Virus record (IMG/VR): IMGVR_UViG_3300030060_007423
Span: 96,001-160,000 of that record
Strand: one strand, 5' to 3'
Source: a virus
Length of the DNA stretch: 64,000 bases
Below the pieces are notes generated by a model. The model saw only the letters and a program-made list of their open reading frames with translations, ran no database searches and was not told where the DNA came from. A program made the translations under genes and the position numbers. Below are positions 1-44,346 of the stretch, piece by piece. Each line of letters opens with the position of its first letter. Position 1 is the stretch's first letter.

Positions 1-558
1 TACAGATGGTTTGAGAATGGCGACTATAATGTCAACATTGTTGGAATCAGAAATTCTGAAACGGGTAACACAGTTACAAACAAATTTGATGACAAAATAA
101 CAATATCATTCAAGTGCGATGGCGAATGGGAATTTTATTGTTATGATTGTACAACAGACCCAGGAACACATTGGGTAGAAAACATAATGAGAAAGGAAGG
201 AGTTGCTGTATTAAAACCAGGGCAATATCCAGGTTCTCATAAAATCAGATTACATCAGGGAAGATATGAAGCATTGGGACAAACAAAAAATGTCACAGTG
301 TATCGTGATAATAATCGTGATGACAAGTATGACTTAGATGACAATAATACACAAACAGGATTATTTGGAATCAACATTCACAGAGCTACAAAATGGGGTG
401 GAAGAAAATCTAGCCAAGTAGATAAGTGGAGTGCAGGTTGCCAAGTAATTGCTGCTAATGATGATTGGCATGAATTTTTAGATATATGTAGAGTTGCACG
501 TGACAAATGGAGCAATAGTTTTACATATACGTTAATTGAATCAAAAGACATAGTATAA
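1..558 (+). CDS. L,D-transpeptidase (YkuD)-like cell-wall enzyme, 5'-truncated by the window
   Basis: Frame 1 is open from base 1 (YRWFENGDYNVNIVGIRN...TTDPG). C-terminal GINIH...WSAGCQV matches the His...SxGC catalytic motif. Confidence 0.6.
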   Translation, partial: YRWFENGDYNVNIVGIRNSETGNTVTNKFDDKITISFKCDGEWEFYCYDCTTDPGTHWVENIMRKEGVAVLKPGQYPGSHKIRLHQGRYEALGQTKNVTVYRDNNRDDKYDLDDNNTQTGLFGINIHRATKWGGRKSSQVDKWSAGCQVIAANDDWHEFLDICRVARDKWSNSFTYTLIESKDIV

Positions 559-905
559 TGAAATTACAAGATATACTTACAGAAAAGAACAAGGGACTCT
601 GGGCAAACATCCATGCTAAAAAGAAGCGTGGTGAAAAGTCAGACCCTCGTTCTAAATCTTACCAAGACGCAAAAAAAGCTGGTGAGAAACTTGCAAAACA
701 AAATGAAGAACTAACAGAAGCTGAAATGGACAAACAATTTGCAAAAGAATTTGAGTCCAACTGTAAAGCATTTATTAATCATATAAAACACGAACTAAAA
801 ACAGCTGAAAGTTCTGATGCGATGGTACTAAGAAAAATGCTAAAAGCTTTACTAGTAGTTTCAGGCTATCCAAAATTAATGTCTAGAATCGTAGGAGAGA
901 AATAA
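558..905 (+). CDS. Putative internal head/cargo protein
   Basis: N-terminus MKLQDILTE; basic GLWANIHAKKKRGEK module. Confidence 0.6.
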   Translation: MKLQDILTEKNKGLWANIHAKKKRGEKSDPRSKSYQDAKKAGEKLAKQNEELTEAEMDKQFAKEFESNCKAFINHIKHELKTAESSDAMVLRKMLKALLVVSGYPKLMSRIVGEK

Positions 906-1144
906 TGAAATTAAAAACAATAATATCACAAAAAGCTTTTGCACCTGAAAAGGAAACAAATGAAGCGGCACCTAAAATGAGAAAGAACCCAGAGGCTGAA
1001 AAAATTGACAAAATATATAAGGCAGCATACCTTCTAAAAAAAGGTGGTTCCGGTAATAGATACGCAAAAGAATTTGAAAAGGCTAAAAAGAAAGCACTTA
1101 AAGCTTTAGCAGAAATGCACCAATACGCTAAGATAGGGGTATAA
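905..1144 (+). CDS. Small basic protein, putative head cargo
   Basis: MKLKTII start; AGGAG upstream; translational coupling. Confidence 0.55.
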   Translation: MKLKTIISQKAFAPEKETNEAAPKMRKNPEAEKIDKIYKAAYLLKKGGSGNRYAKEFEKAKKKALKALAEMHQYAKIGV

Positions 1145-1146
1145 TC

Positions 1147-1623
1147 ATGAAATTGAAAAACATTATAAATGAAATTTCTACAAAGGCTGGACTTAATGAT
1201 GTAATCAAAGGAAGAACAACTTCTATTGAAGGAATTAAAATGTCAAAAGAAATGGCAGAAAATTTAATGTATTGGATTACAACTTCTCCTTATGGTAGAA
1301 AATATGGTAAGCATATCTTAAAGGGTAGAATTGCTTCATTGATTGGACCAGCTAATGCAATGGGATTTGGTGATAGACTTAAAGGAAAATTAAAAGGCGA
1401 ATGGAAAGCTATTGTTGCAAAGCATGGACCTAAGAGAGAATCTGTTAATGAAAGATTAAGTCTTGCAAATGCAAAAAGAATGGATGGACTTCATAATATG
1501 AAAGCAATGAAACAAGTCATTATTGGTGCAAAGGTAATACAGAAAGATTTGTATGATGAAGGATTTGAAAATGATGAAATTCTAGAATTTTTAATGGATA
1601 GAATTAGACGAGCTGCATTTTAA
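1147..1623 (+). CDS. Putative internal head/cargo protein
   Basis: MKLKNIINE start; internal ESVNE linker. Confidence 0.6.
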   Translation: MKLKNIINEISTKAGLNDVIKGRTTSIEGIKMSKEMAENLMYWITTSPYGRKYGKHILKGRIASLIGPANAMGFGDRLKGKLKGEWKAIVAKHGPKRESVNERLSLANAKRMDGLHNMKAMKQVIIGAKVIQKDLYDEGFENDEILEFLMDRIRRAAF

Positions 1624-2012
1624 TGGATAAGTATATCTACAGGGCAAAATTAGATAGGGTAGTTGATGGTGATACTATTGATGCTCTTATCGATGTAGGT
1701 TTTGATATATGGGTTAAGAAAAGAATCAGATATATGGGAATTGATACTTGGGAAAGTAGAACTCGAGACCTGGATGAAAAGAAAAAAGGATTAGCTGCAA
1801 AGGCTAGAAATAAACAACTATTAGATGAAGTATCCAGTAAGCCTGGATACTTTAGATTAAAATCTTACGGAGTTGGTAAATATGGTAGAGTACTTGGTGA
1901 GATTTTTATAATGGACAGTGAAGGTAAGCAATATAATATAAATGAACAACTTAAAGCCGAGGGACATGCTTACGAGTATCACGGCGGCAAAAAACAAGTA
2001 TTCAAAGGATAA
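1623..2012 (+). CDS. SNase/thermonuclease-family nuclease
   Basis: VVDGDT, RxRxxGIDTxE and KYGRVLG motifs. Confidence 0.85.
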   Translation: MDKYIYRAKLDRVVDGDTIDALIDVGFDIWVKKRIRYMGIDTWESRTRDLDEKKKGLAAKARNKQLLDEVSSKPGYFRLKSYGVGKYGRVLGEIFIMDSEGKQYNINEQLKAEGHAYEYHGGKKQVFKG

Positions 2013-2017
2013 AAGAA

Positions 2018-2332
2018 ATGGCAAAAAAAGTAAAAAAGGCTGTAAAGAAAACAGCAAAGAAAGTTGTAAAAAAAGTTTTAGATTCAACAACTATCGATGA
2101 AAAAATTATTGAAAACATAGACAAGAATAGAAGTCTATATAATTTAATCTTATGTTACATTAAATGTTATGGTGGCTATTTATTGGCAGTAGGTGCTGGA
2201 TGTACTTATGGTGCAAACATTTGGTGGGGATTAGCATTAACCGTTGGTGCAGGTGCATGGGCATATTGGCAAGTATGTAAATGTAAAGCTTGTAAAACAA
2301 ATATGCCAGGTGGTACTTGTTGTAATGAATAA
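2018..2332 (+). CDS. Membrane protein with basic N-terminus and Cys-rich tail
   Basis: Hydrophobic segments; CKCKAC...CC C-terminus. Confidence 0.55.
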   Translation: MAKKVKKAVKKTAKKVVKKVLDSTTIDEKIIENIDKNRSLYNLILCYIKCYGGYLLAVGAGCTYGANIWWGLALTVGAGAWAYWQVCKCKACKTNMPGGTCCNE

Positions 2333-2564
2333 GTTAGTATTAATATTTATGATACTGACATTGAGTTCATGTATGGTATCACAGAAAGCATACGATACAA
2401 AATGTGCAGAATATGATGCACAAATAGTTGAGCTTGAAAGTAAAGCTCGTGGCATGGAAATGAAAGAACAACTTTTAAGAGAAAAATTGCATAATGTAAT
2501 TACAGAACTTAAAAAATTAAAAGATCCAAACAACCAGCCACCACACGACCCAGCAAACGACTAG
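2325..2564 (+). CDS. Lipoprotein with coiled coil
   Basis: Start re-set to MNKLVLIFMILTLSSC (lipobox LSSC). Confidence 0.65.
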   Translation: MNKLVLIFMILTLSSCMVSQKAYDTKCAEYDAQIVELESKARGMEMKEQLLREKLHNVITELKKLKDPNNQPPHDPAND

Positions 2565-2573
2565 GAGAAAAAA

Positions 2574-2879
2574 ATGATTAAATTGTCTAAAATATTAAAT
2601 GAAGATGGCTATAAAGGATTATTAGATGATATTCCTGGAGCAAAAGTATACACTGCATCTGGTGGTGGAACTGCTGAAACACAATCAACCAAAAAGATTT
2701 GGGATGATGGAACACCTGTTCTTAAGTATATTGCAAGAGCACCTAAAAAGACAATTAAGTTACCTAGAAAGTTTAAGGTTGTTGATGATACAAAATATGG
2801 CTGGTGGTACTTTCAGATTGGAAATGTTTGGCATGGAATTGACAAAGACAAATACGGAACACCACCGTTTGAATATTAA
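2574..2879 (+). CDS. Putative internal head/cargo protein
   Basis: MIKLSKILNE; AGGAG SD. Confidence 0.6.
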   Translation: MIKLSKILNEDGYKGLLDDIPGAKVYTASGGGTAETQSTKKIWDDGTPVLKYIARAPKKTIKLPRKFKVVDDTKYGWWYFQIGNVWHGIDKDKYGTPPFEY

Positions 2880-2895
2880 ATAAAGGAGAATTGTT

Positions 2896-3045
2896 ATGAT
2901 AAATTGGATAAACGGCTTTGATGCCGGAAATAAAAAAGAAAAGTACTACATTGAATTTAGAGTAGGTACTTTTACAGTATTAGAAATGAAGTGGGAATCT
3001 AAGAAATTTAGATTTATGATATTTAATTTGGGATTTGAAATATGA
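2896..3045 (+). CDS. Small hypothetical protein (49 aa)
   Basis: AAGGAG SD; MINWINGF...LGFEI; overlaps next start. Confidence 0.55.
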   Translation: MINWINGFDAGNKKEKYYIEFRVGTFTVLEMKWESKKFRFMIFNLGFEI

Positions 3046-6000
3046 AAAAGTTATTATTTTTATTGCTATTATTACCATCGGTTATATTAGCACAAAACAG
3101 TTGGATAAACATACAATTATTAACAGATGACTATCCAGAAGAAACTTCTTGGACTATAACACCTCCAGGTGGTTCTCCAATTATTGCTCAGTCTGATTCT
3201 ATAATGACAGACTTAACATTATATGATACAACAATTGCTGTAGGTGGAACTATAGTTGTTAATTTATACGACGAGTATGGAGATGGTTTAGGTGGATTTA
3301 ATGGTTCACCAGAAGGTTGGTTTTTAATTCAAAATGATTGTCAAGATACATTATTATATGTGGCAGGAGATTTTGGAGCTTTATATACTGACACTTTAAC
3401 AATAGCACCTTGTGCACCTCCAGTATCTGGATGTACTGATGTAAATGCTACCAATTATGATTCACTCGCCACAGCCGATGATGGTTCTTGTACCTATCCT
3501 CCATGTGGCGGTTTAGTTTTTAGTAATGCATATCAACAATGTCAACCAAATGGTCAAGCATTGGCTATATTTGAATGGGAAACAGATGCATACAATCCAA
3601 CTTGTGAAGTAGTCAAAGTATGGATTAGCAATGAAAACGGTTTAGGACCATTACAGTTTCCAGGTTCATGGCCATCAGGAGGACCTCATAACTTTGCATT
3701 TAATGCAGGTCCAGGACAAATGCCACCAAATTGGTCAGAAGAGTTTTATTGTCAAGTAGAATTTGCAGATGGTTCATTATCAGATACTATTGCATACACA
3801 CCAACACCATGTATTCCAGGTTGTACTGACCCAACACAAATAGCATATAATCCTTGGGCTACAATAGATGATGGTTCATGTAGTGGAACAACTTGTGACA
3901 CAAATACACAATATCAAATATCCATTTCAATAACATTAGATAATTGGCCAGGTGAAACAAGCTGGCAATTTGTTGATGGTTTAGGTAATACATTTGACTA
4001 TCCAGTAGGAACATATGATTTTAATGATATAGGACAAACTTATACTTACGCATTCTGTGTAGACCAAAATGCAGCTTTTGAAATGATTATCAATGATGAT
4101 TATGGTGATGGTATGGCTGGTTCAACATCAGGTGGAACAATGGATGGTGAAATTTTTATATATGATTGTTCAGGAGATACTATTTGGTATATGGACAATC
4201 CTGGTTTTGGAACTGTATTATATTCAGGTCCACAAACAGCAACACCTTGTCCTACTATTCCAGTAATAGACGGATGTACAGATGATGATTATGTTGAGTT
4301 TAATCCTCAAGCAAATAATGATGATGGTAGTTGCTTAACATTACATACTTACGGTTGTACAGACCCAGCAGCGTTTAACTATGATCCTTCAGCAACTATG
4401 ATGGACTTAACACCAGATTGTAATTACGAACTATGGATTGGAGATGCTGGCGGTGATGGTTGGGGTAATTCATTTATAGGTGTATATCAAAATGGTATTA
4501 ATCTTGGAACATATACAATGGGACCAGGTAATTATCAACAAACCTTTAATGTAATTTTAGACCCAGGAGTTCCAGTAGAAGTATTTTATTTTGAAGTAGG
4601 TGGACCACAACAACCACCAGAAGAGGTACAATTTCAAACTTGGCATAATTCATTTAAGTTAACAAATGCAGATGGTGTTGAACTAATGTATGAAGGACAG
4701 AATCCATTTGCAAATAATGGTCAAGGAGCACTTCAAGGATTTGGAGCACCATTCTTTACAAAATATGTAGCAGTTCCATTTTGTGGAAATACTTGTATTC
4801 CAACAGTATTGGGTTGTATGGACTCATTATCTGTAAACTTTGACCCAAATGCAAATGTAGATGATGGTTCTTGTATTCCTGAAATTTTAGGATGTACTAA
4901 CCTTTTAGCATTTAACTATGACCCAAATGCAACTTTGGATGATGGTTCATGTATTCCAGTTGTAAATGGATGTATGGATTCATTGGCATATAATTTTAAT
5001 CCTTTAGCTAATACACCAGATGGAAGTTGTGTATTTTTAGGATGTACAGATAATTTAGCTTGTAATTATGATGCAATTGCAAATGTAGATAATGGAGGTT
5101 GTACTTACCCAGCTCAATATTACGATTGTTATGGAGCATGTATAAATGATACTGATGGTGATGGTGTTTGTGATGAGTTGGAAGTTTTAGGATGTACGGA
5201 TCCATTATCAACTAATTTTAATCCTGCAGCTACAGATGACGATGGTACTTGTATACCAATTATTTATGGATGTACTGACCCAACAATGTATAACTATAGT
5301 GTAACTGCTAATACAGATGATGGTAGTTGTGTACCGTACATTTATGGATGTACTGACCCAACAATGTTTAATTATGATGTAACTGCAAACACTGACGATG
5401 GTACATGTATACCTATTGTTATTGGTTGTATGGATGTAACTATGTGGAACTATGATCCTTTAGCTAACACATCATCAGGAAATTGTATTCCATTCATATA
5501 TGGTTGTATGGACCCAACGATGTTTAATTATGATCCGTTGGCGAATACAGATAATGGTACATGTGAGCCATTTGTTTATGGATGTACTGACCAAACTGCA
5601 CTTAACTTTAACCCATTAGCAAATACTTTAGATAATAGTTGTTGTTATATTGCAGGATGTACTGACGCATCAGCACTTAATTATGATCCAGACGCATGTT
5701 ATGATGACAATTCATGTATAACAATTGTAACAGGTTGTACTGATGTAACGGCTTACAACTATAACCCAGCTGCAAATGTTTCAGATTCAAGTTGTTTATA
5801 TGATGCAGGTTGTTATGGTGGACCAGGAGTTCCATATTGGTTGAATGATGGATGTTATGCTTGGGTAATTGATGTTGATGATTATTGTTGTACAAATGAT
5901 TGGGATGTAAACTGTCAATCAATGTATGATTATTGTGAACAAGGTTGGCCAGTGTCAACTGAAGAATTATCTGGTTCAGGTACAATATTGGTATATCCAA

Positions 6001-6191
6001 ACCCAACGCCAGATGTATTAAATATTGATACACGATTAGATGTTGAAGTTGAATTATATGATATGATGGGAAGAAAACTTATCGTAACAACTGATAAGAG
6101 AATAGACATATCTAAATTTGATTCTGGAGTATACAACATGATAATTATATACGACAACCTTAGATTTAGTAAAAGGGTAATAAAACAGTAA
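3042..6191 (+). CDS. Secreted Cys-rich repeat protein with T9SS type A C-terminal sorting domain
   Basis: Signal peptide; about 16 GC[TM]D..AxNYDPxANxDDGSC repeats; C-terminal VYPNP...YDMMGR...SGVY...KRVIKQ. Confidence 0.85.
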   Translation: MKKLLFLLLLLPSVILAQNSWINIQLLTDDYPEETSWTITPPGGSPIIAQSDSIMTDLTLYDTTIAVGGTIVVNLYDEYGDGLGGFNGSPEGWFLIQNDCQDTLLYVAGDFGALYTDTLTIAPCAPPVSGCTDVNATNYDSLATADDGSCTYPPCGGLVFSNAYQQCQPNGQALAIFEWETDAYNPTCEVVKVWISNENGLGPLQFPGSWPSGGPHNFAFNAGPGQMPPNWSEEFYCQVEFADGSLSDTIAYTPTPCIPGCTDPTQIAYNPWATIDDGSCSGTTCDTNTQYQISISITLDNWPGETSWQFVDGLGNTFDYPVGTYDFNDIGQTYTYAFCVDQNAAFEMIINDDYGDGMAGSTSGGTMDGEIFIYDCSGDTIWYMDNPGFGTVLYSGPQTATPCPTIPVIDGCTDDDYVEFNPQANNDDGSCLTLHTYGCTDPAAFNYDPSATMMDLTPDCNYELWIGDAGGDGWGNSFIGVYQNGINLGTYTMGPGNYQQTFNVILDPGVPVEVFYFEVGGPQQPPEEVQFQTWHNSFKLTNADGVELMYEGQNPFANNGQGALQGFGAPFFTKYVAVPFCGNTCIPTVLGCMDSLSVNFDPNANVDDGSCIPEILGCTNLLAFNYDPNATLDDGSCIPVVNGCMDSLAYNFNPLANTPDGSCVFLGCTDNLACNYDAIANVDNGGCTYPAQYYDCYGACINDTDGDGVCDELEVLGCTDPLSTNFNPAATDDDGTCIPIIYGCTDPTMYNYSVTANTDDGSCVPYIYGCTDPTMFNYDVTANTDDGTCIPIVIGCMDVTMWNYDPLANTSSGNCIPFIYGCMDPTMFNYDPLANTDNGTCEPFVYGCTDQTALNFNPLANTLDNSCCYIAGCTDASALNYDPDACYDDNSCITIVTGCTDVTAYNYNPAANVSDSSCLYDAGCYGGPGVPYWLNDGCYAWVIDVDDYCCTNDWDVNCQSMYDYCEQGWPVSTEELSGSGTILVYPNPTPDVLNIDTRLDVEVELYDMMGRKLIVTTDKRIDISKFDSGVYNMIIIYDNLRFSKRVIKQ
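4810..5800 (+). repeat. Tandem ~26-aa GCTD-NY-DDGSC coding repeats
   Basis: Periodic GGATGTACTGAC/GGTTGTATGGA DNA units. Confidence 0.85.
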
Positions 6192-6601
6192 TGAAAAAAT
6201 TTATTAATTGGCATAAGCTTACTATAGGTAAATTACAAAATATCTTGAGAATAGATTCATATCAAACTTTATGGATAAGTTTTGTTAAGGGATTATTTAT
6301 AGGGTATTTACTATGTATGCTTACAAGTTGTGCACTAACATATGAAGCACCACATAAATGCGAATTAATGCTAAGAGGTGAACCTTGCTTAACCAGCCAT
6401 GTATGCTGTAATCCACCTCAGACATATCATTATGAAACATATCCAAATTACTATAATTGGTGGTGGCTAACACGACCAAAGCATACTACTAATTATGTAA
6501 TTGTAAAACCAAATAATAAACCTACATATAATGGTCATAGACCAAATTGGAATAATAAGCCTAATAATAAGCCTAATAAAAATAGGAGTAAAAGAAAATG
6601 A
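6191..6601 (+). CDS. Membrane or lipoprotein with NNKP-repeat tail
   Basis: Hydrophobic segment ending LTSC; AATAATAAGCCT tandem repeat. Confidence 0.55.
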   Translation: MKKFINWHKLTIGKLQNILRIDSYQTLWISFVKGLFIGYLLCMLTSCALTYEAPHKCELMLRGEPCLTSHVCCNPPQTYHYETYPNYYNWWWLTRPKHTTNYVIVKPNNKPTYNGHRPNWNNKPNNKPNKNRSKRK

Positions 6602-7677: not shown

Positions 7678-7687
7678 GAGTTTACAA

Positions 7688-7978
7688 ATGGCAAAGGAAT
7701 TAAATGAAGATTCAGGTTTTAAGGTTAGTATAAAAACTTTAATAGCAATTGGATTCGCAATGGCAACAATCATAGGGATGTGGTTTGCTCTTCAAGCAGA
7801 TATTGAAGAGGCAAAAGAATTACCAGTTCCACCACCACCTGATGTTACCAGGATGGAATTTGATATGAAAGATAAGAACATACGTCTAACTATCGAGAAT
7901 ACTCAAGAAGATGTTGAAGAAATAAAAGAAGATTTGGATAGGATTGAAGAAAAAATTGACGAATTAAACAGGAGATAA
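7688..7978 (+). CDS. Single-TM coiled-coil protein
   Basis: TM helix, PVPPPP linker, acidic coiled coil. Confidence 0.65.
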   Translation: MAKELNEDSGFKVSIKTLIAIGFAMATIIGMWFALQADIEEAKELPVPPPPDVTRMEFDMKDKNIRLTIENTQEDVEEIKEDLDRIEEKIDELNRR

Positions 7979-7981
7979 GTT

Positions 7982-8335
7982 ATGAAATTTATTAAATTGA
8001 TTATAGTTATGTTTATGATGTTACCACTTATTAGTTTTGGCCAAACGTTAAAGCTTGGTAGTGGTGTACAAGTAGTTCACTTCAACGCAAATTGGAATTC
8101 AGCAAATGATGTTAAGTGGGTTAAAGGTTTAAGTGACTGTAAAATAAAATCATGTGATATAGCTACAGATACTAAAGCACAAAATAAATGGGAAATAGTA
8201 GTTGTACCAACAATTATAATTTTTAATGATGGAGAAGAGGTTAAAAGATTTCAAGCAGATATATCTTTTGCCATGAAGGCAACCCAAGAGGAGGTTCAGG
8301 AAAAAATAGATGAAATATTAATGGAGGGATTCTAA
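7982..8335 (+). CDS. Exported thioredoxin-fold protein lacking CxxC
   Basis: Signal peptide; VHFNANWN in place of WCxxC; VVPTIIIFNDGEEV cis-Pro motif. Confidence 0.7.
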   Translation: MKFIKLIIVMFMMLPLISFGQTLKLGSGVQVVHFNANWNSANDVKWVKGLSDCKIKSCDIATDTKAQNKWEIVVVPTIIIFNDGEEVKRFQADISFAMKATQEEVQEKIDEILMEGF

Positions 8336-8556
8336 TGTGGAAATTATTCAAAGACGAAAATGATATAAACGAAAAAGCTATTGTTGGCTTTGCATCTTTT
8401 ATCTTAATGGTATTATTTGCAATTTGTGATTTAATTACTGGATGGTGTGGTATGGAACTTGTAATAAATGAAGTAATATATAATTCATTTGTTATTGTAA
8501 CATTAGGTAGCTTTGGTATAAGTTCAATAGAAAAAATCAAAGGCAATGGAAAGTAA
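8335..8556 (+). CDS. Two-TM small membrane protein (possible holin-like)
   Basis: Two hydrophobic helices; basic C-terminus. Confidence 0.5.
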   Translation: MWKLFKDENDINEKAIVGFASFILMVLFAICDLITGWCGMELVINEVIYNSFVIVTLGSFGISSIEKIKGNGK

Positions 8557-8942
8557 TGATTAAATTAACAGATATACTATTTGAGTATGTAACAAAGAGT
8601 GACATGCGTAGTATTGAAAACTATGCAGATAAACTTTTTGCAGCAGCAGGTATTGATGTTGATTTTACACGTCACTTTAGACAACGTGTTAATGATGAAA
8701 GAAATATAAAACCAATTACAGCAGCAGAACTAATAGGTGTATTTAAGAGGACATGGAAGAAGTACGGAAAAAAACTACCAGAATTAACGGCAAATGCTGA
8801 AGCTGTAATAAAAGACATGAGAAGTGATATAAATATGCCATTTGTATTTACACAAGATAAAGGTGGCGAATTGGATTTAATTGCTAAAACCATAATGAGA
8901 AAGAAAAACTTTCGAACAACAAATAAAGTATTGGATATATAA
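8556..8942 (+). CDS. Putative head cargo protein
   Basis: MIKLTDILFE; FTRHFRQRVND...KTIMRK. Confidence 0.6.
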   Translation: MIKLTDILFEYVTKSDMRSIENYADKLFAAAGIDVDFTRHFRQRVNDERNIKPITAAELIGVFKRTWKKYGKKLPELTANAEAVIKDMRSDINMPFVFTQDKGGELDLIAKTIMRKKNFRTTNKVLDI

Positions 8943-8944
8943 TT

Positions 8945-9418
8945 ATGACAAAATTTAATGACGCAAAATGGAGAAGAGAAATATTAGAAGGTAAGCACCA
9001 ATTAAACGAGTTTACTGAATATGGTTTTGACCCTAGAGAAATGCACCAGAGAAATTCTGAAAACCCACAAAAAGTTGTAAGTGCATTAAAGAAAGCAGGC
9101 TTTTCAAAAATAAACCTTGGTAAAGCTCAAAAACAAGTAAGAAGTTTGGATATGAATAAAACTCGAGGCGTTATGTTTGTTCATGTACAATATCACGTTA
9201 TTGAAGGAAAGGACGGAAAGAAATACTTTATACATCAATCACAATATCATCATAGAGATTTTGGAACAGGTGGTGTAAATCTAACAGCAGTGTATGTAGA
9301 GGAGAGACCTAACTATCCAGATAAAGGTGGTGAAAAAGAAATAGGAAGAGCAGTTTTTCTTAAAGATGATTTCTTAGACGGTTTGAAAAAAGTTAATGTA
9401 TTGAAACGGGCTTCATGA
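8945..9418 (+). CDS. Hypothetical protein (ILE/LNE sites)
   Basis: Long ORF in operon. Confidence 0.6.
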   Translation: MTKFNDAKWRREILEGKHQLNEFTEYGFDPREMHQRNSENPQKVVSALKKAGFSKINLGKAQKQVRSLDMNKTRGVMFVHVQYHVIEGKDGKKYFIHQSQYHHRDFGTGGVNLTAVYVEERPNYPDKGGEKEIGRAVFLKDDFLDGLKKVNVLKRAS

Positions 9419-10116
9419 TTAAACTTGTTGACATATTAACAGAAGGTGTATATGACCCAGGTATATTTAAGGCTGTGTTCACAGCTGGTGGACCTGGTAG
9501 TGGAAAGTCATATGTTGCATCTACATTATTTGGTATGCCAGAAAAAATGCCATTTGTTTCTGCAAAGGGACTAAAATCTGTTAATAGTGACAAGTACTTT
9601 GAAACATATTTGAAAATGAGTGGACTATCTCAAGATATTGCAAAGATGACACCAGCAGAATATGAACAAGCTATGGAAATAAGAAAGAAGAGTAAAAAAG
9701 TTAGAGATGCTGCTCTTAAGAATTATATAAATGGAAGACTTGGTTTGCTAATTGATGGAACTGGAAAAGATTATTCAAAAATAGCAAAACAAAAAAGTAG
9801 ATTGGAATCTGTTGGCTATGATTGTTTCATGGTGTTTGTAAATACAGATTTAGAAGTTGCACTTAAAAGAAACCAAAAACGTGAAAGAAAAGTACCAACT
9901 GATGTTGTAAAGAAAGGTTGGTCAGATGTACAAAGTAATGTTGGAAAGTTTCAAAGTTTATTTGGTGCAAGCAATATGTTAATTGTAGATAATAGTGAAT
10001 ATAAAGACTTTGGAAAAATTGTTAAGCGTGGTGCAAATTCATTTATTTCTAGACCTTTACAAAATCCAAAAGCAAAGGCATGGATTAAAAAAGAATTGGA
10101 GTTGAGAAAATCATGA
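9415..10116 (+). CDS. Zeta-toxin/AAA_33-like P-loop kinase, putative head cargo
   Basis: MIKLVDILTE; GGPGSGKS Walker A; LIDGT; RNxxRxR lid. Confidence 0.75.
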   Translation: MIKLVDILTEGVYDPGIFKAVFTAGGPGSGKSYVASTLFGMPEKMPFVSAKGLKSVNSDKYFETYLKMSGLSQDIAKMTPAEYEQAMEIRKKSKKVRDAALKNYINGRLGLLIDGTGKDYSKIAKQKSRLESVGYDCFMVFVNTDLEVALKRNQKRERKVPTDVVKKGWSDVQSNVGKFQSLFGASNMLIVDNSEYKDFGKIVKRGANSFISRPLQNPKAKAWIKKELELRKS

Positions 10117-11456
10117 GTAAATTATTAAATGAAATTAAAAATATGATACACCAAGAATTGAATGAAATCAGAAAAGGTGATTATGTTGATTCAATGGGTG
10201 AAGTTGGATTAGTTAATAAGGTTAAAGGTCAAGTGGCATATGTTAAATTTCCATCAAAGCCAGGAAGCTTTCATCCTATATTGGCCTCATCTCTAAAAAA
10301 AGCTGGTAAACATAAAGGTAAAGACTTATATTCAGAAGGCAAATTAAATGAAAATGTTAGAATGCCAGCAAAGGATTGGATAAACATTAGATTAGTACAA
10401 ATGCTACTTAAATCTGGTGACTTAAAGAAATACAAATCAGTATTACAAAAAGCTCAAGGACAAGATGGCAAAAAAGCTATTGACATGATATATAAAAAAA
10501 TCGTATTACCTTTACATAAAGCTATGAAAATAGACCCAACTAAAGTAAAAGATTTACGAAGTTATATAGCTAAGTATGGTGAAGATAAATTTACAGATGC
10601 TTGGAATAAACTTTATAAACAGGGTGTAAGTGGAAGTTATCTCTATGCACTTGCAGGAACTATATTTCAAGGTATGGAAAGATATGATTATGTTTCAAAA
10701 CCACTTGGCTTAACAGAAGCATCTACACCATCATTACCTTCTGAAGTAAAAAGATACATGGAAAAGTTTTTATCAGCAATTAAAGGTGCAAATCTAAATC
10801 GCCAAAAACAAAAAGTTTTATTGGCTGGATTGATAGAGGCATTAGGAATAGACTCTGGTGAATTGATGATGTTAGTAAACAAAATCAAAAAAGGACTTAA
10901 GACTGAAGATAAAGAAGAACAAGATGAAGTTGGATTGCAAATGCCATTCGTAATGGTTTCTTCTGTAGATGAAGGCAAATTAAATGAAAGTATGATTGGT
11001 ATAAAAACTAAAGCAAACTTCAAACCTTTACAACTTAAAGGAGCATTGGAAAGAGCTGGAATTAAAGGTTTTCAGATGAATAGATTATCTGTGACTCTAA
11101 CAGCATTAAAATTAGATAAAAAATACTTTAAGAAAGCTAAAGAGATTGTTGATAAGTTAGGACTTTCTGTTATGATGGCAAAAGAATCTGTAAATGAAGC
11201 TACTAATCTTTGGAAACACTTCGATGCAAAGATGAAATTACAAGATACTATTATGGACCTTGAATATGATATGAAAATGATAACTAAAGATATAGCTCAA
11301 CTTCATAAAGATATGGAACAAGAGGCAGAACCAGAAGGCGGTCCTAAAGCTACTAGATATGGTAGAGACATCGAAAAGAAAGAAAAAGAATACAAAAAGA
11401 AAAAAGCTGAGTTCAAAAAACTTATGGCTAAATTGGATAGAATGGAACAATACTAA
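10113..11456 (+). CDS. Modular polyprotein with EGKLNE/ESVNE linkers
   Basis: Repeated LNE/LTE/VNE linkers separating unrelated segments. Confidence 0.65.
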   Translation: MSKLLNEIKNMIHQELNEIRKGDYVDSMGEVGLVNKVKGQVAYVKFPSKPGSFHPILASSLKKAGKHKGKDLYSEGKLNENVRMPAKDWINIRLVQMLLKSGDLKKYKSVLQKAQGQDGKKAIDMIYKKIVLPLHKAMKIDPTKVKDLRSYIAKYGEDKFTDAWNKLYKQGVSGSYLYALAGTIFQGMERYDYVSKPLGLTEASTPSLPSEVKRYMEKFLSAIKGANLNRQKQKVLLAGLIEALGIDSGELMMLVNKIKKGLKTEDKEEQDEVGLQMPFVMVSSVDEGKLNESMIGIKTKANFKPLQLKGALERAGIKGFQMNRLSVTLTALKLDKKYFKKAKEIVDKLGLSVMMAKESVNEATNLWKHFDAKMKLQDTIMDLEYDMKMITKDIAQLHKDMEQEAEPEGGPKATRYGRDIEKKEKEYKKKKAEFKKLMAKLDRMEQY

Positions 11457-12682
11457 TGATTAGTTTGGTTGACATAGTAAACCTTAATAAATTGGTGTAT
11501 TCAGAAGACATCAAAAAGAAACATTTGGATGTAATAAATAATCCATCTCCTCTTTTTGAAAAATTTGATTTAACACAATGGATGGGAACTCCTCCTCCAC
11601 AAAATGGTAGTAGAACAACATTTAAGGAAATACTTCAGATAGATAGTATTCCAATGGATAGTGAATTTATTCATAGTGGTGATAAAACTATAAAATATTT
11701 TGAAAATTGGTTTATTGAAAATACATGTGGATGTAATCATACATTTCCAAAAGCATATATAAATAAAATAAAAGATGCAACAAGACCTTTAATTCTAAAG
11801 TTAAAATATCATTATAATCGTCCAAGACCTATACAGGTTGCAGAAACACATGGATTAAAGTTTCATGAAGAACCATTGGAGAGTGCAAAAACTCCAGCAT
11901 ATCCAAGTGGACATGCAACACAAGGAATGTTAATAGCTATGGTTCTATCTGAAATGTACCCAGAACATACTGGTGAATTAATGAATTTAGGTACTGATGT
12001 TGCAAACTCAAGAATGGTTGCAAAGGTACATTATCCATCTGACACAAAATTTGGATGTGATTTAGCAAAAGCATTATTTAATCATATTAAACAAAATTCT
12101 AATATGAAAGAAAATATTGTAGAAAATAAAATTGTCAAAACCAAAAAACTTACCCTTAAGAATTTATTATCAGAAAATTATGATTTAGACAATCATCCAA
12201 AAAAGAAATGGATAAAGCAACAACTATCTTCAATAGATAAAAAAATAATGGAGTATTTGTTCAAACAGTACAAAGCAGTTTACTCGGCAGAAGGAATGGA
12301 CTTATCAGCGTTTAGTGCAAGTGAATTACAAAGTAGTTACCAAGTAGTAATGTTGATTGATGTTGACAAAGATCCTATGCCAGATGCATTTATATTTACA
12401 AGAGGTAATCGTGTAAAGTTATTAGCAACTGATGGACAAGGACCAAGTAAAAGTGCTGTAGTTAAAAAAGTTGTTAACATGGTAAAATCAGAAGGATACA
12501 ACTTAGAAGCTAGTAAAAAAATGAATGACATTATGATAGGTAAAGGCGCACCTGTTATAACTGATAAAAATAAAATTGAAAAAATGGTAGGACCAAAATT
12601 TATAAAACACCTTGACAATGGATATTATGAAAGAAAACTTAAAAAAGGTGGTAATGTTGTAAAAAGAATGTATGGGAAATAG
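11456..12682 (+). CDS. PAP2/vanadium-haloperoxidase-family phosphatase fused to a second module
   Basis: KxxxxRPRP, YPSGH and SRxxxxxHYPSD motifs; internal LTLKNLLSE. Confidence 0.8.
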   Translation: MISLVDIVNLNKLVYSEDIKKKHLDVINNPSPLFEKFDLTQWMGTPPPQNGSRTTFKEILQIDSIPMDSEFIHSGDKTIKYFENWFIENTCGCNHTFPKAYINKIKDATRPLILKLKYHYNRPRPIQVAETHGLKFHEEPLESAKTPAYPSGHATQGMLIAMVLSEMYPEHTGELMNLGTDVANSRMVAKVHYPSDTKFGCDLAKALFNHIKQNSNMKENIVENKIVKTKKLTLKNLLSENYDLDNHPKKKWIKQQLSSIDKKIMEYLFKQYKAVYSAEGMDLSAFSASELQSSYQVVMLIDVDKDPMPDAFIFTRGNRVKLLATDGQGPSKSAVVKKVVNMVKSEGYNLEASKKMNDIMIGKGAPVITDKNKIEKMVGPKFIKHLDNGYYERKLKKGGNVVKRMYGK

Positions 12683-12684
12683 AT

Positions 12685-13962
12685 ATGGCTAAAATAAAAA
12701 AAGGTAGTATTGTAATACCTAAAATCGGTGTACACAAAGGCGAAAAGCACACTGTAATTCATGACTTTGGAAATGGTACATATAATATACAACCAATGGG
12801 ATTTAGAAACAAATACCACTTAGGAGCAGCTGGTGCAAAGGCAAGTGACTTAAAATTGGTTAAAGAAGACAAAGACATTGGCCATCAAGATGATGAACCA
12901 AACATGTTAAAATCCACTGCATTGGAAATAATGGAGTATGGTAAAAAACTTATGGATAAGTTAGATAAGTATGATGATATGGAAGAAGAAGTTGATTTTC
13001 CTAATTGGTGGCAATCAAAGCTTATTATATCAAAAGAATATCTACAAAAAGCTTATCACTATCTAGATTCTGAAGAAAAAACTAAAGAAGATAAAGTAGA
13101 TGAATCAACAGAAACTGATGAGCTAAAAGTATTACTACGTGATTTAATACAGAAAGAAATGGAAGAAAGAGCCGTAGTATCTAAAATACCATCAGCTTAT
13201 GGATATGACGAAGATGTAGCAGGAATATCTGTTAATGGTTCAGATGTTGAAGAATCAACAAAAGAGTATGGTAAATCTCTCAAAAAAATAGCATTGGATA
13301 AACAATTAAAAATGTTATCTAAAAAAGATAAAGAAACATTGTTAAAAATTGCAAAACTAATGGGTAAAGAAAAACTCAAAGAAGTTATTGAAAAAGCCAA
13401 TAAATTAAATGAAGCAAACAAGTACCCAACAGTTTCAAACAAGTTTAAGAACGCATTAGACAGATTACCAGAAAAACATTTTCATAGAAAAGGTGTAAAG
13501 GCATTAATCAAAAAACTAAAAGAAAAAGACCCAGAAGCTGCAATGGCATATACAATGGCCGCATTTGGTTGGATGAAGAATATGAAAGAAGGGTTTGCTA
13601 GTTATGCACAGCAAAAAGCAGCATACGCTAGTGGATACAAAGGCAAAGGAAAGAAAAAAAGAAAAAAAGAATCTATGGCTAGTCACCCAGTTGTTAAACA
13701 AGGATTTGCAATAGGTAAAGCTAGTACTGTTGGTGGTGAGGAAATGTCATCTGCATCTGGAATATCTGATAGTGATGAAGACCCAACAGATAATCATTCT
13801 AAAAAAGTTAAAGAAATTGTAAAAGCTGAACTTAAAAAGGCAGGTCTTGAAGATGATTATAATATTTTAGATGTAATCACATCCTTAGGTTTAGAAAATA
13901 CAAATGAGTCAAAATTTATTAAAGTAGTTAGGGAAGAAATAAATAAACAGTTGGAGTTGTAA
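12685..13962 (+). CDS. Modular acidic/basic polyprotein
   Basis: Multiple VKE/LNE/VEE linkers. Confidence 0.6.
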   Translation: MAKIKKGSIVIPKIGVHKGEKHTVIHDFGNGTYNIQPMGFRNKYHLGAAGAKASDLKLVKEDKDIGHQDDEPNMLKSTALEIMEYGKKLMDKLDKYDDMEEEVDFPNWWQSKLIISKEYLQKAYHYLDSEEKTKEDKVDESTETDELKVLLRDLIQKEMEERAVVSKIPSAYGYDEDVAGISVNGSDVEESTKEYGKSLKKIALDKQLKMLSKKDKETLLKIAKLMGKEKLKEVIEKANKLNEANKYPTVSNKFKNALDRLPEKHFHRKGVKALIKKLKEKDPEAAMAYTMAAFGWMKNMKEGFASYAQQKAAYASGYKGKGKKKRKKESMASHPVVKQGFAIGKASTVGGEEMSSASGISDSDEDPTDNHSKKVKEIVKAELKKAGLEDDYNILDVITSLGLENTNESKFIKVVREEINKQLEL

Positions 13963-14684
13963 TGGTTTTAAGAATGACATTTAGTGGTAGCCAGCAAATC
14001 ATTGAAGAAGTCTGTGAACATTGTGGTGAAAAGATTGAAGATGTACAACACAGTGAAATAATAGTACAGAAAGATACTGACAAGCGAAGATTGAGAATGC
14101 AGGATAGGGATGGACAGAGAAGAGAACTATTTAAGAAGGCAGATAAAATTGCAGGTATAAAGGCATCAGCATCTGCACAAGGAATGTATGATAGAGCTAT
14201 TGATGGAGATGACTTAAAGTATAGTGTACGTGCAGAAAGAATGTGTAGTTCAAGTGATGGCACAACTACTCAATTTTGTTATAGGGTTACAAATCCAAAA
14301 TTTTTAGCAAAGACTAAGGCAGATGGAACAAGTCTTAGTGCTAGTTTTTTTGATCCAAATGAACCATTAATAAACGAAACCGGTTCAAAGGTTGGATTAG
14401 ATAGGCGAGGAAATGTTGTTAGATTAAAAGAGGAAACTAAAGAAGGTGGTAGTAGAAGACAAAAGGGAGCCTTTGGAGTTACTTGGTTTGCAAATTTAGA
14501 TGCTAGGCGACAAAAAACTGTGTTGGAACAATATCGTGGTTGTAGCTACATGTTAAGATTAGGTGCACAACAAGCAAGTGCTGAAGATGTCCCAGGATTT
14601 CAAAAAGGTGAAATGGGTGAAGGATTGGCAACATTTAGATCTTTAGAAGAATTTAAGTTAGCACACAGTAGATACTGTAGTTAA
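13962..14684 (+). CDS. Hypothetical protein
   Basis: 240-aa ORF; carries FSGS, ASAS, LSAS and ETGS motifs. Confidence 0.6.
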   Translation: MVLRMTFSGSQQIIEEVCEHCGEKIEDVQHSEIIVQKDTDKRRLRMQDRDGQRRELFKKADKIAGIKASASAQGMYDRAIDGDDLKYSVRAERMCSSSDGTTTQFCYRVTNPKFLAKTKADGTSLSASFFDPNEPLINETGSKVGLDRRGNVVRLKEETKEGGSRRQKGAFGVTWFANLDARRQKTVLEQYRGCSYMLRLGAQQASAEDVPGFQKGEMGEGLATFRSLEEFKLAHSRYCS

Positions 14685-14696
14685 GAGGAAATAATT

Positions 14697-15029
14697 ATGG
14701 AAAAAATATTATATAGAAATGAAAATTTAAGACTTGAAATATACGAGACGGCTGAACCTATATTGTTTACTGAGGCTGAATATCAAGGTCGTAAAGTTAA
14801 ACTTAACAAGATAATGCAAGGTGATGCAAAAAAGTTTAAGGTATATGTTAAAAATCCAAAGGGAAATGTTGTTAAAGTAAACTTTGGACAAGGTGGTGAT
14901 GCTAAAGGTGGAACTATGCGTATAAGAAAAAATAACCCAAAGGCCCGTAAAAACTTTAGGGCTAGATTTAATTGTGATACACCAGGACCTAAACACAAAG
15001 CAAGGTACTGGGCATGTAGAACTTGGTAG
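14697..15029 (+). CDS. Basic phage protein (KVNFG...FRARFNC...ARYWAC family)
   Basis: Resembles a motif I associate with large-phage proteins; LFTE site. Confidence 0.6.
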   Translation: MEKILYRNENLRLEIYETAEPILFTEAEYQGRKVKLNKIMQGDAKKFKVYVKNPKGNVVKVNFGQGGDAKGGTMRIRKNNPKARKNFRARFNCDTPGPKHKARYWACRTW

Positions 15030-15038
15030 GAAATTATT

Positions 15039-15734
15039 ATGATAAAACAAACATTAAAAATAATTGAAAGAATTGGTTCAACTACATGGTCTGGGTATAC
15101 AGAAAAAGGTCGCTCATTAGACAATACTGTAGGTGGACAGCCAGCTGGCAAATCTCTTAAGAGACGTGTTGCAGATAATACAGTACCTGACCATGATGGA
15201 AAATCTGCACCGTATGGTTCAGCATATAAAAAAGTAAAAGACTTAGATGAGATGAGTGCAACTGCCAAAAAACATGGTAAGTTTGGTCTTACAAATGTAC
15301 CATTTCCAACTGAAGAACCAAATGAGTTTGCATATTTAGATTTTGTAAAGTATGTTAAGAAAAATGAAAAGAAAATCATGAAAGCATTATCAAATGTTAG
15401 AGGTGAAAGAATGTTTAAGGCAATTGAATCTGTATGGTCTAACTGGGATGATAAAGCAAATAAAGGAGCTTTTTCAAATATTCGTGGTAATAAGTTTGGT
15501 AGAGCATTAGTCTTAATGTTAAGAAAAGACGATTTAGTTTTTCAAAATACTGGAAACAAAATAACTAATCTAAAAGAAAAATATAATATTAGAAAGCAAT
15601 CTTGTACACAATCTGATGGAGACAAAGGAAATACAGTTTTATATTATACAACTAAAAAGGGTAAAAAACGTAGTAATTGTCATACATCAAAAAAGAATGC
15701 AAAAGACCAGATTGCAGCAATAGAGGGACCATAA
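15039..15734 (+). CDS. Putative head cargo polyprotein
   Basis: MIKQTLKIIE; LDE and LKE linkers. Confidence 0.6.
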   Translation: MIKQTLKIIERIGSTTWSGYTEKGRSLDNTVGGQPAGKSLKRRVADNTVPDHDGKSAPYGSAYKKVKDLDEMSATAKKHGKFGLTNVPFPTEEPNEFAYLDFVKYVKKNEKKIMKALSNVRGERMFKAIESVWSNWDDKANKGAFSNIRGNKFGRALVLMLRKDDLVFQNTGNKITNLKEKYNIRKQSCTQSDGDKGNTVLYYTTKKGKKRSNCHTSKKNAKDQIAAIEGP

Positions 15735-15736
15735 TC

Positions 15737-16273
15737 ATGATAAAGAAAACATTACAACTTTTTGAAGATAAAAAATCATCCAGTGCAGATCCAAAAAAAT
15801 CACCAGAATATTACAAAGGACTTTCTGCAAAAGAAAAGAAAGAAAGATCAAATGTAATTGCACGTAGAAGTAAAATGGACGATGATGACCCAGAAGCATA
15901 TGCAAAATTTAGAAGTGATGCTGGTGAAAAAACTAAACCATCAAAGCATACTAATAAATTCAAACAAATGTTTGGTGAAGAAAAGTGGAATACTCTTAAA
16001 GAAGTATATGAAATGGCAAAAGGCCTAAATGAAATGAGTGCTGCTGTAAAAAAAGCATTAAAGAAAAAAGCTGATAAATCTGGAATGCCTTTAGGTGTAC
16101 TAAAGCAAGTATTTAACAGAGGAATGGCTGCATGGAAAACTGGACATAGACCTGGTGCAAGTCAACAACAGTGGGGATATGCAAGAGTAAATAGTTTTGC
16201 AACAAAAAGTCCAGGTACTTGGGGTAAAGCAGATAAAGATTTAGCTAAAAAGGTTAGAGGAAAAAAGAAATAG
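15737..16273 (+). CDS. DUF5824-like basic protein, putative head cargo
   Basis: Start re-set to MIKKTLQLFE; KTKPSKHT; RGMAAWKTGHRPG..QQWGYARVNSF. Confidence 0.65.
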   Translation: MIKKTLQLFEDKKSSSADPKKSPEYYKGLSAKEKKERSNVIARRSKMDDDDPEAYAKFRSDAGEKTKPSKHTNKFKQMFGEEKWNTLKEVYEMAKGLNEMSAAVKKALKKKADKSGMPLGVLKQVFNRGMAAWKTGHRPGASQQQWGYARVNSFATKSPGTWGKADKDLAKKVRGKKK

Positions 16274-16965
16274 TGATTAGCCTTAAACAAATATTAGAAG
16301 GTAGCAGTAATACTTCAACATACACAGCCGATAGTGGTGAACCTGATACAGGATTTTTACCAGGTGGAAAGGCAAGACGTCTTGGTATGAGAAAGGGTAA
16401 ACCTGAACCTTGGTTTGAAAATGGAGGATACACACAGGTTGATTTTCCTAAAGGTGATTACATATATGGAAAAAGAACACGAGCCGAATTTAGTGTAAAG
16501 AAACGAAACGTTAGAATGGTTGTAAAATTAAAAGAATCAAATAAACCATTGAACGAAAGATTTATTGTTGAATCATCAAAATCTGAAATTATGGATGTAG
16601 TCAATACAGTATATCCATATATAGTAAAAGATTTAGGTGGAAGAGCCGTAAAGGTTGAAGTACACAACAATATTTACAAAAGACTTGGTGCTGTTGGTGA
16701 AGAAGATTTAATGGTTGATAACAATCCTTATGGTGAATATGATTGGGATAAAAGAAAGATATATCTATACGCATCAGCAATAAAGAATACTGAACAAATA
16801 ATTAGGTCATTACTACATGAACATACCCATACATTACAGAGTAGAAAAAAGTTCAAAGCTGGATATGATAGTGGAAAATATGATTACAAAACTCATCCAT
16901 ATGAAAAAGCTGCAACACAAGCTGAAAGAAATTGGAAAAAATATTTGAAGTACCTAAATGATTAA
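16273..16965 (+). CDS. Zincin-like metallopeptidase, putative head cargo
   Basis: GTG start MISLKQILE; LLHEHTHxLQ...PYEKAA. Confidence 0.7.
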   Translation: MISLKQILEGSSNTSTYTADSGEPDTGFLPGGKARRLGMRKGKPEPWFENGGYTQVDFPKGDYIYGKRTRAEFSVKKRNVRMVVKLKESNKPLNERFIVESSKSEIMDVVNTVYPYIVKDLGGRAVKVEVHNNIYKRLGAVGEEDLMVDNNPYGEYDWDKRKIYLYASAIKNTEQIIRSLLHEHTHTLQSRKKFKAGYDSGKYDYKTHPYEKAATQAERNWKKYLKYLND

Positions 16966-17479
16966 ACTAAAAGACATATTACATGAAGGTATTACTCTCA
17001 GTATATTTGACTTTGATGATACATTGGCAAAAACTGATAGTTGGATATATGTTATTAAAAATGGACGAGAAGTAAAAAGATTAGACCCGGCACAATTTGC
17101 AACTTATACTCCAAAGGTTGGTGAAACATTTGATTTTAAGGATTTTGATAAAAAACTAAAAAACCCTAAAATCATAAAGAAAAACGTTGATTTATTACGT
17201 AAACAACTAAGTAAAGGTGGCAGGAAAGTGACTATATTAACTGCCAGAAGACTTGGTGCACCCATAAATTCTTTTTTCAAAACTCTAGGTATTCAGCCAT
17301 ACATTGTACCATTAGGTGATGCAAATCCACAAAAGAAAGCAGATTATATAGAAAAGCAAATAAGAAAAGGAAAGTATAATCCTATATACTTTATGGATGA
17401 TAGTCCAAAGAATATCAGAGCAGTTGACTCACTAAAAAAGAAATATCCTAGAATCAAACTAATAACCAAGCTTGTATGA
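16958..17479 (+). CDS. HAD-family phosphatase, putative head cargo
   Basis: MIKLKDILHE; FDFDDTL, ILTAR, K and FMDD motifs. Confidence 0.8.
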   Translation: MIKLKDILHEGITLSIFDFDDTLAKTDSWIYVIKNGREVKRLDPAQFATYTPKVGETFDFKDFDKKLKNPKIIKKNVDLLRKQLSKGGRKVTILTARRLGAPINSFFKTLGIQPYIVPLGDANPQKKADYIEKQIRKGKYNPIYFMDDSPKNIRAVDSLKKKYPRIKLITKLV

Positions 17480-17482: not shown

Positions 17483-17851
17483 ATGTCAGATATAAAAATC
17501 ATAAAACTAGACACTCATGCTCAAGGCCTTATTGGTTGGATTGCAGTACAGAATGACCACACTTTAGGGCATATATTCATGTCCGTTGAACTCGAAATGA
17601 AAATAAAGTTTTTAGATGCTTGGGTACATGAGGAGCATAGGAGAAAAGGTATATTCAGAAAATTGTGGAATACCAGGTGGTCATTTGTTCAAGAAAATTA
17701 TAATGGCTATAAAGTATACGCATGGGCATTACCAAAAAGTTTGCCACTCCTATTAGAAAAGGGCTTTATAGAGGGTGACACTTGTGTATATGTTGAAAGG
17801 CAAGTTGAAGACTTGAAGCCTCCTGGAGAGCAATGTTTTGTCTCTTGTTAA
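17483..17851 (+). CDS. GNAT acetyltransferase
   Basis: WVHEEHRRKGIFRKL acetyl-CoA motif. Confidence 0.75.
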   Translation: MSDIKIIKLDTHAQGLIGWIAVQNDHTLGHIFMSVELEMKIKFLDAWVHEEHRRKGIFRKLWNTRWSFVQENYNGYKVYAWALPKSLPLLLEKGFIEGDTCVYVERQVEDLKPPGEQCFVSC

Positions 17852-39625: not shown

Positions 39626-39643
39626 GGTAGGTAAACTATAATT

Positions 39644-40930: not shown

Positions 40931-40961
40931 ATAGTGTTTTACTCAGTACACTTTTTTTATT

Positions 40962-44345: not shown

Positions 44346-44346
44346 T

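Follow-up and report, generated by a model that had tools for sequence, protein, structure and literature searches.

The window analysed here is a stretch of 64,000 nucleotides, bases 96001-160000 of one 170.8-kb viral contig (IMG/VR record IMGVR_UViG_3300030060_007423) that carries nearly all of its genes on the plus strand. Its first part is occupied by a gap-free block of 27 genes (18 kb, genome 95953-113851), in which every intergenic gap is shorter than 35 bp, and within this block eleven predicted proteins with otherwise unrelated bodies begin with variants of one short leader. All eleven starts lie on the plus strand exactly where a preliminary description of this DNA had placed them, at window positions 558, 905, 1147, 2574, 8556, 9415, 11456, 15039, 15737, 16273 and 16958. 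We think it likely that this shared N-terminus is a capsid-targeting and processing leader of the kind known from phage T4, which, by analogy with that system, probably loads the approximately eleven unrelated basic proteins into the phage head to be injected together with the DNA.

The leader takes the form MIKLx(D/K)ILxE in four proteins (2574, 8556, 9415 and 16958) and MKLx(D/N)I(L/I)xE in two (558 and 1147), and the variants at 15039, 15737 and 16273 still finish with aliphatic-x-Glu at residue 9 or 10; nine of the eleven leaders have [I/L]-x-Glu ending at one of these residues. The T4 prohead protease gp21 cuts at (I/L)-x-Glu, and the corresponding rule ([IL]-x-E with Glu at residue 9 or 10) was run on all 211 called genes. 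It matched 12 of them, where amino-acid composition would predict about 4.6 genome-wide, with 9 matches among 26 block genes versus 3 among the 185 genes elsewhere (Fisher p = 2.8e-7). The three matches outside the block are a scaffold-like protein, the major capsid protein and an ATP-dependent DNA ligase (window 22728-24008) that starts MKELKQFIDE and whose resemblance to the leader is probably due to chance; a stricter pattern, with two hydrophobic residues before x-E, retains eight genes, six of them in the block and the other two those for the scaffold-like protein and the capsid protein. The motif is restricted to the block and to head genes. An equal frequency on early genes for non-virion proteins, which the preliminary description had named as one outcome that would count against its proposal, was not found, the motif being rare among the other genes of the genome. 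Since the codons for Leu, Ile, Asp and Glu vary synonymously among copies of the leader, it is the peptide that is conserved, and a signal in the DNA is ruled out. All eleven carriers are basic, with isoelectric points (pI) of 9.3-10.1, whereas the median for the genome is 5.8 (Fisher p = 4e-7).

Five of the tagged bodies belong to differing families and the remaining six have no Pfam family. Enzymatic identities had been proposed for four of them: Pfam bears out the P-loop kinase and the PAP2 phosphatase, the HAD phosphatase is recognized by its FDFDDT motif with a weak match to DUF2608, and the zincin label is tentative because the protein shows no more than a conserved HExxH at residue 182 and a DUF3920 match below threshold. 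The kinase, a 233-residue protein of the Zeta_toxin/AAA_33 type (9415-10116; E 1.6e-11), carries MIKLVDILTE immediately before its conserved GVYDPG core. In an AlphaFold (AF2) model built on 24 homologues, residues 1-15 lie outside the kinase core with a predicted local distance difference test score below 50 and a short helix at residues 4-9, and the confident core starts with a strand at residues 19-25. Foldseek with this model returned generic P-loop kinases (adenylate, polynucleotide and zeta) and no specific assignment, and a PDB sequence search gave only a weak match to seryl-tRNA(Sec) kinase.

The 408-residue protein at 11456-12682 is a fusion of a PAP2 phosphatase module (E 2.5e-12) and a second module. 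Its N-terminal leader, MISLVDIV, lacks the Glu, and an internal leader, LTLKNLLSE, noticed already in the preliminary description, is present at the fusion junction (residues 232-240, window 12149-12175). A regular expression for internal leaders showed no clear enrichment in the block and missed this junction. Three tagged genes follow one another closely at the end of the series, encoding a very basic 178-residue DUF5824 protein (15737-16273; E 1.5e-20; leader MIKKTLQLFE), a 230-residue fusion of an N-terminal module and the HExxH module (16273-16965), and a 173-residue HAD-type phosphatase (16958-17479). The fusion has a GTG start and the leader MISLKQILE, and a remnant internal leader ending in LNE lies at window 16522-16557; its homologue in a related locus (L006, 89% identical) has an ATG start and the same kind of leader. 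In the HAD protein, MIKLKDILHE stands six residues before the DxDxT strand, with FDFDDT at residue 17 and the DUF2608 match at E 5e-5. PDB sequence searches yielded nothing useful for the HAD and HExxH proteins.

The other carriers are basic proteins, most of them small. The first, of 115 residues and pI 9.6 (558-905), has the 9-residue leader MKLQDILTE and a body that matches the interior of longer PHROG profiles. It is followed by a 79-residue protein (905-1144) with the weak leader MKLKTII, in which Gln replaces Glu, and by a 158-residue protein (1147-1623) with the leader MKLKNIINE; the former is a paralogue (family F6) of a 179-residue protein encoded next to the prohead protease (genome 20039), a family that also takes in MKLKRILKE proteins adjoining the protease in the related locus L055, and the latter is a paralogue (family F3) of a 499-residue structural-module protein at genome 11019. 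Proteins of 101 (2574-2879), 128 (8556-8942) and 231 residues (15039-15734, with no known family) carry MIKLSKILNE, MIKLTDILFE and MIKQTLKIIE, respectively; the homologue of the second in Sinorhizobium phage phiM12 is the C-terminal module of a 602-residue protein, and searches of the ESM Atlas with the second and third found only unnamed viral clusters. Two more basic proteins may be counted as probable members on account of their relatives: one of 157 residues without a clear leader here (8945-9418; family F10), because homologues start MIKLKKVLQE or MIKLHKILKE, and one of 447 residues starting MSKLLNE (10113-11456; family F21), because homologues start MKSKEIRKIISE or MDKNRLKNIIAE.

The same contig encodes, some 75 kb upstream of the window, a T4-type head module, identified by Pfam and PHROG profile matches and including the large terminase. 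Its portal is of the gp20 type (Portal_T4, PF07230, E 3.4e-74), its prohead protease (genome 19364-20026) belongs to the gp21 family (Peptidase_S77, PF03420, E 8.8e-29; PHROG head maturation protease phrog_207, E 6e-55), its major capsid protein matches Gp23 (PF07068, E 2.2e-78) from residue 72 on, and an acidic 353-residue scaffold-like protein occupies the gp22 position. The leader of the tagged proteins also heads the scaffold, the capsid protein and the neighbour of the protease. Sites of the form [IL]xE occur on average 1.11 times per 100 residues in this genome and three to four times as densely in the candidate prohead core proteins; among proteins of about 180 residues or more the highest densities belong to the 179-residue protease neighbour (4.47), the scaffold-like protein (3.97) and the product of the gene that follows the portal gene (3.78). 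In the capsid protein, four such sites fall within the first 61 residues and the next one comes only at residue 318. In T4, gp21 digests the scaffold and takes 65 residues off gp23 (PMC9958956), and the distribution of sites in the predicted head proteins fits a protease of T4-like specificity. The preliminary description had spoken of an analogous peptide; the leader system is probably homologous to that of T4. A homologue of ribosomal protein S21 (PF01165, E 3.7e-11; genome 20677-21015, L001:10677-11015) is also encoded in the head module, outside the window, between the protease-neighbour gene and the scaffold gene.

These genes, the type IX secretion system (T9SS) sorting domain borne by a block gene, which suggests a host in the Bacteroidota, and the nearest cultured relative by capsid protein, which infects Flavobacterium, point to an uncultured T4-like phage of a marine member of the Bacteroidota. 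A megablast search of GenBank phages with 10 kb of the tagged block gave no match.

Virion data are available for homologues in distant phages. Kinase homologues occur in 151 GenBank phage records, nearly all of them large myoviruses among the matches listed, and in each lineage the homologue has its own leader ending in hydrophobic-x-Glu: MIPFILKE in HTVC008M, MTTFKEYLLE in RsoM2USA, where three neighbours have similar starts, and MKSFKQFTE followed by LTE in phT4A, a member of the T4 family in which a neighbour starts MKINLHRFIVE. ORF257 of RsoM2USA, encoded in the cluster of the tagged kinase, is among the ten abundant bands of the virion. Six genes in a row in Agrobacterium phage Atu_ph07 (gp53-58; L086, Atu_ph07 39484-46418), whose numbers we assigned by means of the 1611-bp coding sequence 49 and molecular weights, share the 8-residue start M(K/R)WxQL(T/N)E; the stretch examined ends short of the start of gp59. 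According to the virion proteome in Table S5 of PMC6102473, gp53-59 were all detected, with 12-47% coverage; the passages of that paper that were consulted make no mention of the shared start. The kinase homologue (40.6% identity, E 6e-43) is part of the first of these proteins, gp53, which repeats L(T/N)E|LFDT at two of its module junctions. The [ILV][TN]E sites of gp53 lie at residues 8, 252, 458, 582 and 733, and cleavage at them would yield fragments of about 5-27 kDa, most of them 14-27 kDa, the one with the kinase measuring 23.0 kDa. In the published table the 87-kDa gp53 was identified by 31 peptides (45.5% coverage) and peaked in band 9, among the proteins of 21-22 kDa (PMC6102473), an indirect hint that leader and junctions are cut in Atu_ph07. 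Together with RsoM2USA, these data support an association with virions for proteins of this class and do not extend to those encoded in the window.

The Atu_ph07 data also bear on the strongest of the alternatives to a delivery leader, which we nevertheless consider unlikely: that the tagged proteins, or at least the small ones, are accessories of the prohead core or scaffold, to be degraded or expelled at maturation and not delivered. Such a fate befalls gp67 and gp68 of T4, core proteins that are targeted and then degraded or expelled during maturation. It would agree with the paralogy of the proteins at 905 and 1147 to proteins encoded beside the protease and within the structural module, and with the leader and many [IL]xE sites of the core proteins of this genome. 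In the enzyme members, by contrast, internal [IL]xE sites are few and the catalytic motifs (P-loop, DxDxT, PAP2 and HExxH) are intact, and the detection of gp53-59, as tabulated, was made in mature virions of Atu_ph07.

Closer relatives show what is conserved in the leader and where. The kinase was used to search IMG/VR, which yielded 595 related loci; 80 of them were retained. In these 80, the leader pattern is present on 11.7% of called N-termini versus 2.4% of internal control positions, and after clustering of the bodies roughly 25-30 unrelated families bear leaders of the MIKLxxILxE type. Among about 65 distinct kinase N-termini, the leader is 9 to some 21 residues long; the Glu in front of GVYDPG is invariant and P3, the third residue before the cut, is aliphatic with few exceptions, while P2 varies. 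For the HAD protein, nearly all of the best 120 clusters start MIKLKDILxE. The tagged kinase lies within the structural module in two loci (L046 and L055), and no homology was detected between the kinase and the 815-residue structural-module protein that follows it in relatives. Candidate cultured carriers of the leader are Flavobacterium phage immuto, which grows on Flavobacterium sp. LMO8 and whose protein immuto35A_41 starts MIKLIDLLTE, HTVC008M (AGE60463) and Melnitz.

Leaders have also been kept where genes were fused or split. Residues 232-407 of the PAP2 protein are 71% identical to a stand-alone protein of 177 residues in locus L053, whose N-terminal MIKLVNILGE aligns with the internal LTLKNLLSE, and three other loci have PAP2-only proteins of 212-231 residues. 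The HExxH module of the protein at 16273 is a stand-alone tagged protein of 140 residues, again in L053, longer HAD proteins (about 190-290 residues) retain a leader-like ...ILKE|G ahead of the HAD strand, and several tagged proteins match the interior of much longer PHROG profiles.

This pattern makes it quite improbable that the leader merely reflects favourable initiation of translation, or a recurrent N-terminal helix, in an AT-rich genome and has no role in sorting. Starts of the MK and MIK kind are indeed frequent in AT-rich phages, and the DNA ligase probably arrived at a similar start by chance. The pattern is, however, limited to one block and the head genes, its Glu and aliphatic P3 are maintained next to a variable P2, and all of its carriers are basic; moreover, leaders are kept at internal junctions, where there is no translation start, and therefore an explanation based on translation starts cannot account for them.

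Directly after the HAD gene, the last tagged one, the final gene of the gap-free block encodes a GNAT-like acetyltransferase (window 17483-17851; sub-threshold Pfam matches). It would be the candidate enzyme if the leader were a recognition sequence for a modifying enzyme, as in ribosomally synthesized and post-translationally modified peptides, an explanation to which we attach very little probability: the GNAT matches are below threshold and nothing else ties this gene to the leader, no radical-SAM gene was found in the genome (no PF04055 match), and the leader accompanies gp21-type head modules in very different phages. Least probable of all is a remnant of shared ancestry, or a recombination linker at the DNA level between gene cassettes, since the genes are indeed adjacent and often overlap by ATGA, but their bodies come from different Pfam families, the leader codons differ between copies, and homologous bodies bear different leaders in different lineages.

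The proposal of a T4-like addressing peptide is supported by the coexistence of an S77/gp21 protease with gp20 and gp23, the leader on head proteins, the basic carriers and the junction leaders, and further by the six Atu_ph07 proteins with an equivalent leader, gp53 included, that are listed in the virion by mass spectrometry. We envisage that the tagged proteins would be made together with the head proteins, and that the leader, through its hydrophobic residues 4, 7 and 8, would bind the cargo to the scaffolding core forming on the portal, round which the capsid shell would close. The gp21-family serine protease would then degrade the scaffold at its many [I/L]-x-Glu sites, remove the N-terminal part of the capsid protein, clip each cargo leader after its Glu, and cut fused cargo modules apart at their internal leaders. 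The mature basic proteins would remain alongside the DNA in the head and accompany it into the host. The putative cargo in this phage would comprise the P-loop kinase, the PAP2 and HAD phosphatases, the putative metallopeptidase, the DUF5824 protein and several small basic proteins. Core binding, cleavage, retention, injection and the role of the enzymes in the host are all inferred, with T4 as the guide.

A wider form of this idea, which we hold tentatively and with less confidence than the leader itself, is that the leader with its [I/L]-x-Glu is a portable module boundary, signifying 'pack here, cut here', throughout the phages with T4-type heads, by which any protein module could join the injected set and which in this phage would deliver a first wave of enzymes. 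Such a boundary would be shared by T4 relatives, SAR11 and methylotroph phages and 490-kb jumbo phages. Genes could fuse and split freely because the head protease would separate the modules again, and the kinase, two phosphatases and metallopeptidase would enter Bacteroidota cells before gene expression.

Several observations weigh against the interpretation as a targeting leader. Two of the eleven leaders have no Glu at the expected position, the one at 905 having Gln and the one at 11456 Leu, and the match to the DNA ligase indicates that the simple rule is not specific by itself. The invariant Glu beside the conserved core of the kinase could be structural. The virion data come from distant phages and from polyethylene glycol (PEG)-purified or gel-band preparations; the Atu_ph07 virions, according to the published material, were only PEG-purified, and the list of their proteins includes obvious contaminants. 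The block also encodes Sec- or T9SS-secreted proteins, impossible as capsid cargo, and position in the block therefore proves nothing. With regard to expression, the T4 late promoter TATAAATA is not enriched before structural genes, and the promoter-like motif TTGATATTTAT/TATATTTATA is only suggestive as a sign of late expression. The contig itself is about 80% complete by the CheckV estimate.

The TTGATATTTAT motif precedes the tagged block and many head and tail genes as well, and the TerL and sheath genes carry the TATATTTATA variant. Genome-wide, two promoter-like classes can be distinguished, TTGATATTTAT/TATATTTATA mostly before structural genes and the tagged block, and TTATTGTC followed by a spacer and TAGTTATATTA upstream of other genes, the latter overlapping in part with the TTGATATTTAT motif; examples of promoter-like sites are found at genome 95907 (window -93), 24050, 30618, 43280 and 85400. 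The sequence ATATTTAT occurs 52 times on the plus strand, 40 of them intergenic or just upstream of a start. It was rejected as a marker of timing, there being two classes, and cannot date expression.

Other genes stand between the tagged ones. The tagged block is interrupted by predicted exported proteins (2325, 6191 and 6598) and by a small thioredoxin-like protein with a signal peptide (window 7982-8335; PF00085, E 1.5e-4, sub-threshold). In the middle of the block, a protein of 1049 residues (window 3042-6191) has a signal peptide and many repeats, each containing Cys and about 30 residues long; a T9SS sorting domain (PF18962, E 1.3e-9) lies at its C-terminus, and it would be secreted by the infected Bacteroidota cell. 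A basic homologue of staphylococcal nuclease (PF00565, E 8.4e-7; window 1623-2012) lies in the block and has no leader; staphylococcal nuclease is one foreign protein that has been artificially loaded into T4 heads via the capsid targeting sequence (CTS).

If the proposed role of the leader is correct, the proteins injected by abundant marine T4-like phages could be listed from sequence alone, for phages of Flavobacteriia and, by homology, for those of SAR11 and OM43; such lists are at present unobtainable for uncultured phages. The proposed cargo is enzymatic (kinase, phosphatases and peptidase), unlike the small inhibitor proteins of T4, and would point to chemistry for host takeover or counter-defence that acts ahead of all phage gene expression. 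Judging by the fused forms with their internal leaders, such arsenals may evolve through module shuffling, and the leader would offer a natural packaging tag for the engineering of Bacteroidota phages.

The closest precedent is T4 itself, whose capsid targeting sequence on internal proteins was reportedly described by Mullaney and Black in 1996. The T4 CTS, MKTYQEFIAE (PMC8442874), is found on IPII and IPIII, and also on IPI and Alt, and is removed by the gp21 prohead protease (PMC9026906, PMC3012670, PMC9958956), with LIE-9 and cleavage after the Glu (PMC9026906, PMC5694885); mutations place targeting mainly in residues 4 and 7 and processing in residues 8 and 10 (PMC9026906), and the internal proteins are described as 'highly basic' (PMC8442874). 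The leader studied here is likewise a sequence of about ten residues on unrelated basic proteins, with hydrophobic residues at 4, 7 and 8 and Glu at 10. The four MIKL 10-mers have Leu4, Ile7, Leu8 and Glu10, with an acidic residue 6 in three of the four; Leu4 and Ile7 recur in MISLKQILE, a leader of 9 residues, the two MKL 9-mers have the corresponding residues displaced by one position, and the MIKQ and MIKK leaders deviate. As in T4, a gp21-family protease, a gp20 portal, a gp23 capsid protein and a scaffold rich in the same sites are encoded in one genome. The differences are that the consensus here is MIKLxDILxE, that some 11-13 proteins carry it and not the handful of T4, that several carriers are enzymes with recognizable folds and some are fusions with internal leaders, and that the probable host is a marine member of the Bacteroidota and the leader system is known from sequence alone. 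A full-text search of the literature for 'capsid targeting sequence' found, among the matches listed, no work on marine or far-T4 phages.

Three other systems invite comparison. The polymorphic internal-protein loci of T-even phages hold proteins of many kinds, united by the CTS alone (cited in PMC3012670; T2, T6 and T4D variants in PMC9026906), and the resemblance lies in a cluster of genes with only the leader in common, whose members turn over between related phages. Those loci hold small proteins of the inhibitor type, whereas the modules here undergo shuffling, fusion and splitting, and the same families reappear across phages, from pelagiphages to jumbo phages of 490 kb. In giant phages, propeptides of head and ejection proteins (phiKZ gp175, 201phi2-1, SPN3US gp245) are cut after (A/S)-x-Glu (PMC5694885), again by a gp21-related protease cutting after Glu at multiple sites, and with identical N-termini on diverged paralogues; most of these propeptides exceed 100 residues and have a small P3 (Ala or Ser), whereas the leader here has 9-10 residues and an aliphatic P3 as in T4. 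The polyvalent proteins of phages and conjugative elements described by Iyer, Burroughs, Anand, de Souza and Aravind in 2017 are also multi-module effectors, predicted to be packaged, injected and cut into units (PMC5512222), in a paper in which a text search found no occurrence of zeta toxin, PAP2 or HAD phosphatase. They are thought to be cut by peptidase domains of their own, whereas for the present leader, short and repeated, the proposed cutter would be the head maturation protease. It is T4, then, that provides the nearest match: the sequence-testable features that define a T4-type CTS system are found in this predicted gene set.

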